From positions 1 through 16,214 of IMG/VR virus record IMGVR_UViG_2529293213_000030: a DNA stretch of 16,214 nucleotides; one strand, written 5' to 3'. This stretch comes from a virus. Lineage: Duplodnaviria > Heunggongvirae > Uroviricota > Caudoviricetes. A program made the position numbers. This document shows positions 9,001-12,000 of the stretch, piece after piece. Position 1 is the first letter of the stretch. Each line of letters starts with the position of its first letter.

Positions 9001-12000
9001 ATCCACAATCCTGGTTTTTGGGTGAAGACACCTCATCAACACTTTCTTCAGCTGAAAAACACCATACAAGAGAAGACAGCGTTGTGTTCAATGTACTGGA
9101 TGTTGAATTCAGCTGCGGCGACGGAACTCATGTTCGGGGAGATCTAATTGATGTTGTACGCTCAATAGAACTTGATCCTGAATATGCCCGCCGCCTGGTC
9201 GGTAACAGAGCATTCAAGAACATAGAAATTGGTAACGCCAGAGGGGACAGCATGGCCCCAACAATCTCCCCAGGGGACTTGCTGTTTTTAGATAAAACAG
9301 TAACTTATTTTGACGGTGATGGCATTTATGCATTTTGCTTTGATGGCGAATGTTACATCAAACGACTTCAAAAAATTGGAAGCAAGATCATGGTCTTATC
9401 AGACAATCCCAACTATCAGCCATGGAGCATCGAAAAAGAGGGAATGGCGCTGCTATATATCCAGTCAAAAGTCATCTCATCGGTACCATTCAATATCAAC
9501 AGATTTGGTTAGTTATTGATTTTAAATTAAATTATTGGTCACACATTACAAAAAAATCAAGTTTATCAATTTTTGATTGACACGCGTTTTCCTGATACAT
9601 AATATCTCACCATCAATTATATATTGATTAACTTCAACTTAGAATTGCATGGTGATGATATGGAAGCCTTACAAACAACACCAAAAACATGTAGCCTCAA
9701 TACTTACAACAAGGTTTTATGTGATGATTTAGACCTCGATTCTTTTGCATTAACCATCGCAAACCTGCTCAGTGCTGTTCGCACCTTCAACCTCCTGGAT
9801 GATACGCGATTAAAAGAGGTTGGGTTTGATGTGCTGGAATTTACTCATGAATATGCTTTAGCGATCGCATCGACAAAACAACAACATTCTATTCGCTCAG
9901 GCAACAAGATAGCCTGCATACGCACCAAACGTGAAGCCTGCGGCTTAACAACTGCCGAACTCGCCAGGCTGCTCGATCTCGATGAAGAAATTATCATCCA
10001 GTGGGAGAGCGGAGAGTACGAACCAACCATCAGCATGCTTATCCCCCTGGCAAACGTCCTGGGATGCGATCCGCTTTCTCTGCTGAGTGAAAACAATACC
10101 GCAGTACCTGTGCGCGTAAATGCTCCTGAAGCCCATATGGAAAGTATTGGCACACGCATCAAAAGCGCACGTAAAAAACTGGGATTAACCGAATCTGATC
10201 TTGCCCGCATGATTAATACCTATAGCGACCCCATAAATGACTGGGAATGCGGCATCCATGAAGTTCCTGCTGATCAGATAGTACCACTGGCCAGTGCTCT
10301 TAATTGTGACCTGATGTGGTTGTTAACAGGCAAATCAGAAGCAAAGGAGTAACAACAATGACTGGCAATATCCATGATAAGTATGAAGGCTTATGCCTGG
10401 CACCGGATTCCTTTGCAAACAATATCCATAATTTATTATGCGCAGTTGTTGTATTACAAATGTCAGACAACGACGCAATAAAAAGAACAGGTGATGAAGT
10501 TCTTGAATTTGCACGTTGCTATGCTGAAGCAGCTGCTGAAAAAGAACTAACCAGTTAAATAGAACAAGTCATCTCCGGATAATATATTACGGCTTAATCG
10601 CCGGGGATTATCACACCCTTAATCCACAGGAGGTTTTATATGACCTTTATAAAACATAAGGCATCACACAAAACAGCCTGCCTTATTGCACAGCACGGGA
10701 AAAATTACATGCATATTGCCTGCTTGTTTCTGCGTAAAGCATACGGGAGATAATAATGCATCAGAAAACAGCAGAACACGAACAAACCAGAGTATTGCTG
10801 ACCATCAAAAACGGGAAAGTAGTATTAATTCGTCATGTTCATGACGATGAACTTGTAGGAAGTCTTTCAACATTCCTGTTTATTGCAGAAAAGGCAGGAT
10901 ATGACGTTATTGCACCAGCAGATGAAGATGAGGAATAAATTTCATGCAATACGCTGAATTCCAGGCTGAAGCAACAGCCAATGGTATACAAACAGGCAGT
11001 ATGACTATTGATTATCACGACGCAATCCGCCGTCTGGATGCCGGTGAATTCGATCATCCTAATGTGAAAGGTTTACGTATCCTTCAGTGTCTCGCGCAAG
11101 CTGACGAAGCAGGATTACTGGGAAAACTTCCGGTTGAGATGAAGGTTGCCCAGTGGCGATGGTTGTATGTGACGACATTCATCAACGAAGAAGAAGACAA
11201 GAACGGCACAATTGATATCCCGAATGAACACGGAACAACAAATCGCGCCGTAGTATATAACGGGAAGCATGGGTTTATGACGATATATCCCAGTCCCATT
11301 CGTTTTGCCTTACAACAGTATATTGAATGGAATTTAATTCAAAAATACGGCGAGGCAGAAGGAATGGGTAGAGCGCTGTTTCTTTATCAGAAAATGCTCA
11401 TTACATGCCCAGATAAAGGTTTCATTGTTTCAGACATGGGGCGAGAAGGGCTTGAACTCCTTCTGGATGAAATTATTAACGAAATGAATACTCATAGCAT
11501 GCAATCAGAAACCTCTATTAACTAAAAGGGACTACATGACCGTTATCGAATATATCCAGGAAAATCCAGATTGCAGTAGAGAAGATATATCCCTCGCACT
11601 TGGAAGAAGCGGAGTTTCTATCAGTAATGAATTATCACGGTTACTGTGGAATGGGTTAATTGTACGAACTGGTGAAAAAAACAAAATGATTCTGTATCGC
11701 GTAAACAATCTGCCGTTTGGATACAACAATCCCCTGAGCGTTATGTTCAACCAGTTACTTAAACAGGTAAGAAAGTCTGATGGCGACTGACTCACAACTA
11801 ACCATAGATACGGCTCTTAATGTCGGTCTGGCGCTCCTTGGTTATTTCTACATCATGTTCTGCAGCGGACGATGGCTGTCACTGTTGTTCATGAAAAAAT
11901 GGAATAAACGCCGTAAGCAGGATCAACGCCAGAAGGCAATGGATGCATTTTTCGAAGCCTTCGGGATTGACGGCATGGAACCAGGGGATCCAGCTCGCGC

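Follow-up and report, generated by a model that had tools for sequence, protein, structure and literature searches.

Among the closest described counterparts of the locus analysed here is the SinR/SinI pair (and likewise SlrR/SlrA) of Bacillus subtilis, in which an XRE-type helix-turn-helix (HTH) regulator carries a two-helix oligomerisation module, of which a small neighbouring gene encodes a stand-alone paralog. A phage precedent for such a small mimic of a repressor's oligomerisation domain is AimC/AimX of the arbitrium Bacillus phages, where a small helical protein is proposed to block the oligomerisation of a SinR-like repressor (bioRxiv 10.1101/2025.11.23.689978). Here we analysed a 16,214-nucleotide stretch of viral DNA (IMG/VR record IMGVR_UViG_2529293213_000030, positions 1 to 16,214; hereafter the window), which is the early region of a lambdoid Shiga toxin (Stx) prophage of Escherichia coli, is 99% identical to the Stx2a phage Stx2_14040 and over positions 9500-10760 matches O145 strain RM9872 with 100% identity. 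Directly downstream of its cI repressor gene lie two genes, referred to as A and B, of which A encodes a double-HTH regulator and B a free-standing copy of the regulator's N-terminal module. The literature searched held no functional study of these genes.

Compared with SinR/SinI, the module in A is N-terminal rather than C-terminal, there are two HTH domains, and the setting is a Gram-negative phage; moreover, A and B are unrelated in sequence to the Pfam SinI family (helical hook), which matches neither B nor residues 1-80 of A, no co-variation links the free copy to the fused one, and binding of B to A is proposed by analogy. AimX is peptide-controlled and acts on the main lysogeny repressor, whereas A is an early product distinct from CI, and we detected no homology between the two systems. 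The direct homologues of A and B are L10 and L08 of phage phiP27, both of unknown function: L10 is a single-HTH regulator with an N-terminal module of another type (type E, see below) and the C-terminal half of L08 corresponds to the B domain, whereas the window phage has a hairpin-type N-terminal module, a duplicated HTH domain and a B protein without the N-terminal extension of L08. The region is best explained as the immediate-early leftward (pL) operon of a phiP27-type lambdoid Stx prophage that has Q and in which no N was found.

Gene B and the N-terminal module of the regulator

The start codon of gene B lies 5 nt after the TAA of gene A, and since its AAGGAG ribosome-binding site falls inside the last codons of A, the two genes appear translationally coupled (Table 1). 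The initial annotation had read this small open reading frame (ORF) as a paralog of the N-terminal domain of A, and formal comparison bears this out: residues 27-70 of A align with residues 17-60 of B at 48% identity (BLASTP, E = 4e-9), the local alignment score stands at z = 15.9 and was equalled in none of 200 shuffles, and PHROG profile matches are reciprocal, the N-terminal domain of A matching phrog_4587 (1e-5) and B matching phrog_4836 (6e-5). Each protein also matches its own family over its full length (A against phrog_4836, 4.8e-91; B against phrog_4587, 5.8e-36). Gene B was annotated by the Prokaryotic Genome Annotation Pipeline (PGAP) and by one GenBank phage record and omitted by another, and among divergent orthologues it evolves under purifying selection, with a median ratio of nonsynonymous to synonymous divergence (dN/dS) of 0.20. 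By these sequence comparisons B is a real, selected gene and a true paralog of the N-terminal module of A; in this it resembles pairs of the SinR/SinI type, whose small partner is likewise paralogous to the part of the regulator that does not bind DNA.

The regulator itself had been described from the outset as a protein of about 230 residues with two XRE-type HTH segments and an unrecognised N-terminal domain, and it proved to be so. Pfam HTH_3 matches A twice (E = 1.9e-18), giving the XRE DNA-binding domain of a SinR/SinI-type pair, and residues 1-80 have no Pfam match at E values up to 0.1. The two HTH domains form an internal duplication (37% identity, E = 4e-13) and are most similar to the 434 and P22 C2 repressor DNA-binding domains, which for HTH2 are the nearest solved relatives. 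Note additionally that PGAP places the start of A at ATG 9660 with GGTGA ahead of it; GenBank Stx phage records begin instead at TTG 9624 (242 residues), inside the predicted operator OL-b described below and without a ribosome-binding site. We consider ATG 9660 the more plausible start.

The AlphaFold model of B is confident (pLDDT, the predicted local distance difference test, of 92.7) and consists of a short N-terminal strand followed by an antiparallel hairpin of helices 16-34 and 39-65; the same hairpin appears in the N-terminal module of A (pLDDT about 64, modelled as a monomer). Apolar residues conserved in the family extend around 240 degrees of the first helix and 180 degrees of the second, which exceeds the surface that one hairpin can bury and suggests that the hairpin may form an oligomeric bundle. 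The N-terminal domain had originally been taken for a sensor; the models instead depict a simple alpha-hairpin, whose wide and conserved apolar face is more in keeping with an association module. A ribbon-helix-helix DNA binder, weighed for the strand-helix-helix order of B, was rejected, as B does not have that fold.

The hairpin is an unclassified domain family that no curated family covers. Fold searches with it returned generic hairpins only, a sequence search of the PDB with B and the N-terminal domain of A returned nothing but a designed repeat protein, and neither of the two has a match in Pfam (E up to 0.1), NCBIfam or PADLOC. A profile search of 1.84 billion representatives yielded 45 members, which take three forms only: free proteins of 60-80 residues, the C-terminal half of phiP27 L08-type proteins, and fusion proteins in which the hairpin precedes one or two XRE HTH domains. 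Among species-representative genomes the B and regulator profiles found no true relatives, and homologues of the regulator are essentially limited to Escherichia prophages. There the module is present in 360 of 5,426 complete E. coli genomes, with up to three copies of the locus in a single genome, and the 66-residue B protein occurs on thousands of contigs. Of 85 loci, 83 have a free hairpin gene after the regulator, irrespective of the type of N-terminal module, and the two also stand together in several distant loci that keep the order cro, cI, promoter, regulator.

The pL promoter and the immunity cassette

As claimed initially, a near-consensus promoter (TTGACA, 17 nt, TAATAT) follows cI, and both of its hexamers are unchanged in 38 distinct versions of the cI-A intergenic region from cI-type-0 relatives. 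The assignment of this site to the pL position likewise stood: as in lambda, a sigma-70 promoter directly downstream of cI and on the same strand drives the early left operon, which beyond A and B runs on to xis and int, and 17-bp operators flank its -35 and -10 elements, with a related one in the right operator region (OR). The left operator region (OL) differs from that of lambda in having two operators, not three, and in that the first gene encodes a DNA-binding regulator, not an Arg-rich antiterminator. As the initial annotation had noted, an N-like protein is missing from the early-left ORFs scanned with Pfam and PHROG profiles; nor did a known RNA equivalent of N antitermination turn up, Rfam giving no family match in 9500-10800. 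A Q antiterminator gene is present at 2595-2942 on the minus strand.

The promoter had also been described as bracketed by two palindromes. Both are present and do flank it: ATCAA-N(1-9)-TTGAT occurs twice in the window (9565-9577 and 9612-9628, vs. 0.52 expected by chance), and both copies adjoin the promoter. The 13-bp reading of the first, ATCAAtttTTGAT (9565-9577), was rejected as an operator, as relatives read ATCAATTTTTTCTTGAC at this place and the element conserved there is the 17-bp ATCAA-N7-TTGAC (OL-a). Its geometry is that of OL-b at 9612-9628, and the sites share the form ATCAA-N7-TTGAY. Allowing at most one mismatch, ATCAA-N7-TTGAT has four matches in the window, 3 of 4 in OR or OL, and a repeat (D2) connects 8769-8788 in OR with 9547-9566 in OL. 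The operator motif is different in every cI type: phages of the other types carry repeats of their own at promoters that are just as strong. Because the 17-bp motif recurs in OR and changes with cI type, OL-a and OL-b are predicted CI operators, and the promoter, with repeated operators that overlap it, are shared with OR and are specific to the immunity type, is on this evidence an ordinary repressor-controlled pL. A promoter bracketed by cI-type-specific operators would be shut by CI in the lysogen and would fire on induction or infection.

The same comparison bears on what A may bind. The initial annotation had considered the two palindromes as sites for the double-HTH protein, and we rejected them as such: the motif varies with cI type and the HTH core of A remains constant, which argues that the DNA targets of A are not the pL operators. 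A non-coding block at about 10584-10618 (ATATATTACGGCTTAATCGCCGGGGATTATCACAC), which contains a TAATC-N6-GATTA palindrome, is the same in four immunity types with varying flanks; it was set aside as a universal target of A, being present only in loci of the 66-residue B haplotype. Separately, relatives with A2-type regulators (loci L022-L085) carry an intrinsic terminator (GGGCTTTGCCC followed by a T-run) between cI and pL, at the equivalent of about 9520-9545 in the window. No such terminator separates cI from gene A in the window variant, the only one in which transcription from the cI promoter could run through into A.

The regulator is mosaic in structure. Among heteroimmune relatives the HTH core is 80-98% identical and the N-terminal modules are very different, and DNA similarity to heteroimmune Stx1 phages starts at window position 9921-9928 (query position 1529, corresponding to window 9928, in one search and 422-429 in another). 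Against a relative whose CI is 93% identical, synonymous divergence (dS) is 1.4-1.7, i.e., saturated, in cI and in the N-terminal module, and 0.13 in HTH1; at the breakpoint it drops from 1.5-1.7 upstream to 0.13 downstream. At equal synonymous depth the N-terminal module evolves faster than cI (dN/dS 0.23-0.27 vs. 0.01-0.06). We discarded positive selection on the N-terminal domain, given this average ratio and flanks that show the domain to be an old allele moved by recombination. Across the 85 loci each N-terminal type occurs with one cI type only, and cI type 0 holds two related N-terminal types. Together, this tracking of cI type and the divergence pattern place the N-terminal module in the immunity cassette and the DNA-binding core and B in a shared backbone.

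The exchanged N-terminal modules come from at least three families. Types A, A2, B and D are of the hairpin type, and types C and E have no detectable hairpin homology; as hairpin homologues, types E/F were rejected at an hhalign probability of 0.3%. The type C module is homologous (z = 23) to a free protein of 137-140 residues that is encoded right after hairpin-type regulators elsewhere, and the type F module weakly resembles free ORFs of 69-74 residues (E/F link, z = 5.9). These free homologues, clear for the hairpin and type C families and weak for E/F, indicate that N-terminal modules are drawn from the same pool as the small free proteins of the operons. Fusion is also seen in phiP27 L08, whose 121 residues join two units that in other phages are separate, overlapping small ORFs, one of about 69 residues ('NX') and the hairpin of about 67 (L090:4699-5108, L096:4639-5048, L004:3297-3662).

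Table 1 Coordinates of the features of the cI-A-B region in the window
Feature	Position	Strand	Remarks
cro-like gene	8433-8690	-	
OR copy of the 17-bp operator motif, ATCAAGTTAATATTTAT	8778-8794		1 mismatch; just upstream of cI
cI repressor gene, HTH_3 and Peptidase_S24	8823-9512	+	start according to PGAP; longest ORF begins at 8793
Predicted operator OL-a, ATCAATTTTTGATTGAC, ATCAA-N7-TTGAC, 17 bp	9565-9581		overlaps -35; spacing kept in relatives
pL-type sigma-70 promoter, TTGACA, 17 nt, TAATAT	9577-9605	+	TTGACA 9577-9582, TAATAT 9600-9605; 10 of 12 consensus matches
Predicted operator OL-b, ATCAATTATATATTGAT, perfect ATCAA-N7-TTGAT, 17 bp	9612-9628		just downstream of -10
Gene A, 230-residue modular XRE regulator (phrog_4836)	9660-10352	+	ribosome-binding site GGTGA, 9651-9655
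N-terminal module of A, residues 1-87	9660-9920	+	alpha-hairpin, residues 26-45 and 49-77; B family; immunity cassette
HTH1 of A, residues 87-141	9918-10082	+	nearly invariant among heteroimmune relatives
Mosaic recombination breakpoint, N-terminal module/HTH1 junction	9921-9928		from starts of relatives' matches and dS shift
HTH2 of A, residues 160-225	10137-10334	+	internal duplicate of HTH1
Ribosome-binding site of gene B, AAGGAG	10344-10349	+	inside the 3' end of gene A
Gene B, 66-residue free-standing alpha-hairpin protein (phrog_4587)	10358-10558	+	paralog of the N-terminal module of A

Possible relations between the regulator and the free hairpin

The best single mechanistic guess for the pair is that B imitates the paralogous domain of the regulator or titrates it. 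In the form we favour, tentatively and with less than even confidence, the hairpin would be the self-association handle of A, and B would join A in mixed bundles to modulate its DNA binding. Two hairpins would pair into a four-helix bundle, letting A oligomerise on DNA; B would form mixed bundles with A through the same hairpin surface; and these mixed bundles would cap or re-partition A oligomers, thereby tuning, and most likely damping, DNA binding by A. This logic is modelled on SinI acting on SinR in B. subtilis and AimX acting on AimC in arbitrium phages. We counted in its favour that the type C module, although unrelated to the hairpin, shows the same fused-or-free pattern.

Several observations weigh against mixed bundles. 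The free copy is no closer to the N-terminal domain of its own neighbour than to those of others (own-partner ranks of 3, 1, 4, 5, 7, 1, 7 and 3 of 8), so that cognate co-evolution of the two, tested in eight loci, was rejected and the proposal gains nothing from co-variation. B is found intact beside regulators of types C and E, with whose N-terminal modules it shares no detectable homology, and the B variant tracks the downstream haplotype, not the type of N-terminal module. Finally, some strains hold a frameshifted B, and no DNA target of A was identified.

Nearly as likely, and again possible rather than probable, is that modules were captured and the two proteins have independent functions. 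Here the HTH core would have fused in-frame with adjacent small helical early genes that serve as its dimerising handle, and B would have an early function of its own, e.g., in host takeover, with any cross-binding to A incidental or selected away. The absence of co-variation and the retention of B beside every type of N-terminal module favour capture, as does the existence of at least three N-terminal families, of which the hairpin and type C families clearly have free homologues in pL operons and E/F have weaker ones. The division of L08 into two small ORFs in some phages indicates that fusion and fission are common here, and the faster evolution of the N-terminal domain relative to cI fits divergence away from interference between paralogs. 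Independent functions sit less easily, however, with two genes that lie so close together and are translationally coupled, with the near-constant company of regulator and free module, and with a hairpin family whose 45 members are not seen outside the regulator or early-operon context.

An unlikely alternative to direct contact between the paralogs is a shared third partner, in which the N-terminal domain of A and B would both bind one outside factor (a host protease, RNA polymerase or CI) and B would serve as a decoy or compete for it, in the way that lambda CIII shields CII from FtsH. Across distant phages B is more conserved than the N-terminal domains, as expected with a constant partner. 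There is also a general likeness to lambda CII/CIII, in that an early HTH regulator accompanies a small helical protein of the pL operon, B lies in the operon that in lambda contains cIII, no cII-like gene follows cro, and PHROG labels A a 'CII-like regulator'. That label, however, is annotation only: A has no match to Pfam Phage_CII, nor B to Lambda_CIII, A is encoded in pL and not pR, and no paralogy links CII to CIII. Moreover, N-terminal modules unrelated in sequence could not all bind one partner alike.

It is also improbable that the free modules are weapons between phages, acting as trans-dominant mimics against regulators of heteroimmune relatives, whether co-resident or superinfecting, and so driving the diversification of N-terminal modules. 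Non-cognate pairs are common, type C and E regulators occurring with a free hairpin and hairpin-type regulators with a free type C module; the N-terminal module diversifies over a shared HTH core, and multiple copies of the locus can meet in one genome. The proposal is nonetheless purely inferential, and the average dN/dS of the N-terminal domain lies below 1.

A dedicated immunity, superinfection-exclusion or toxin-antitoxin module, of the kind entertained in the initial annotation, is very improbable: the locus does occupy the position of lambda rexAB and in the window variant could be read from the cI promoter in lysogens, but the terminator after cI in close relatives means that lysogen expression is not a conserved feature, PADLOC matches at the locus are to generic HTH only, neither a toxin-like domain nor a partner in a toxin family was found, and B, by its model a 66-residue soluble hairpin that drew a blank in Pfam, NCBIfam and PADLOC, is paralogous to a segment of the would-be 'antitoxin'.

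Neighbouring features and implications for Stx phages

Other parts of the window also held features of interest. Within the rightward operon, on the minus strand, Rfam gathering-level matches to C4 antisense RNA (7225-7312, 81 bits) and isrK (7337-7413, 62 bits) overlap a 344-residue ORF with Ash and Rha domains (6607-7641, minus strand); together these look like a P1-type immI (c4/ash/ant) antirepressor module beside a cleavable CI. Downstream of B, a basic 37-residue ORF (MTFIKHKASHKT...; 10640-10753, plus strand) has a strong AGGAGG ribosome-binding site and is kept in different immunity types; among the annotations inspected, it appears in that of the Stx1 phage record LC567819 alone. Two adjoining Ead/Ea22-like ORFs (12027-12680 and 12644-13090, plus strand) are nearly identical over their N-terminal 45 or so residues (YQ(A/E)LREAAVAIETVATPQKLLAFRMKVTP...), which indicates a local duplication. 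Finally, window positions 1-2590 contain long plus-strand ORFs without a Pfam match (457-1509, 1510-1902 and 1842-2564) that adjoin the minus-strand Q gene.

In long-tailed Stx phages, Stx2 phages among them, the A-B module stands in the early region where N would be, and in O145:H28 the type of early region separates high from low Stx2 producers (PMC11333237). The HTH core, being common to heteroimmune phages, could mediate cross-talk between prophages, and N-terminal modules that occur fused or free offer a testable handle on small phage proteins controlling regulators. We also consider, as a long shot, that these N-less lambdoid prophages run a combinatorial system, in which one DNA-binding core takes interchangeable helical modules and the free modules poison matching regulators of rivals. 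If true, this would amount to an arms race over an oligomerisation domain, through which prophages in polylysogenic enterohaemorrhagic E. coli would compete at a further level beyond CI immunity.

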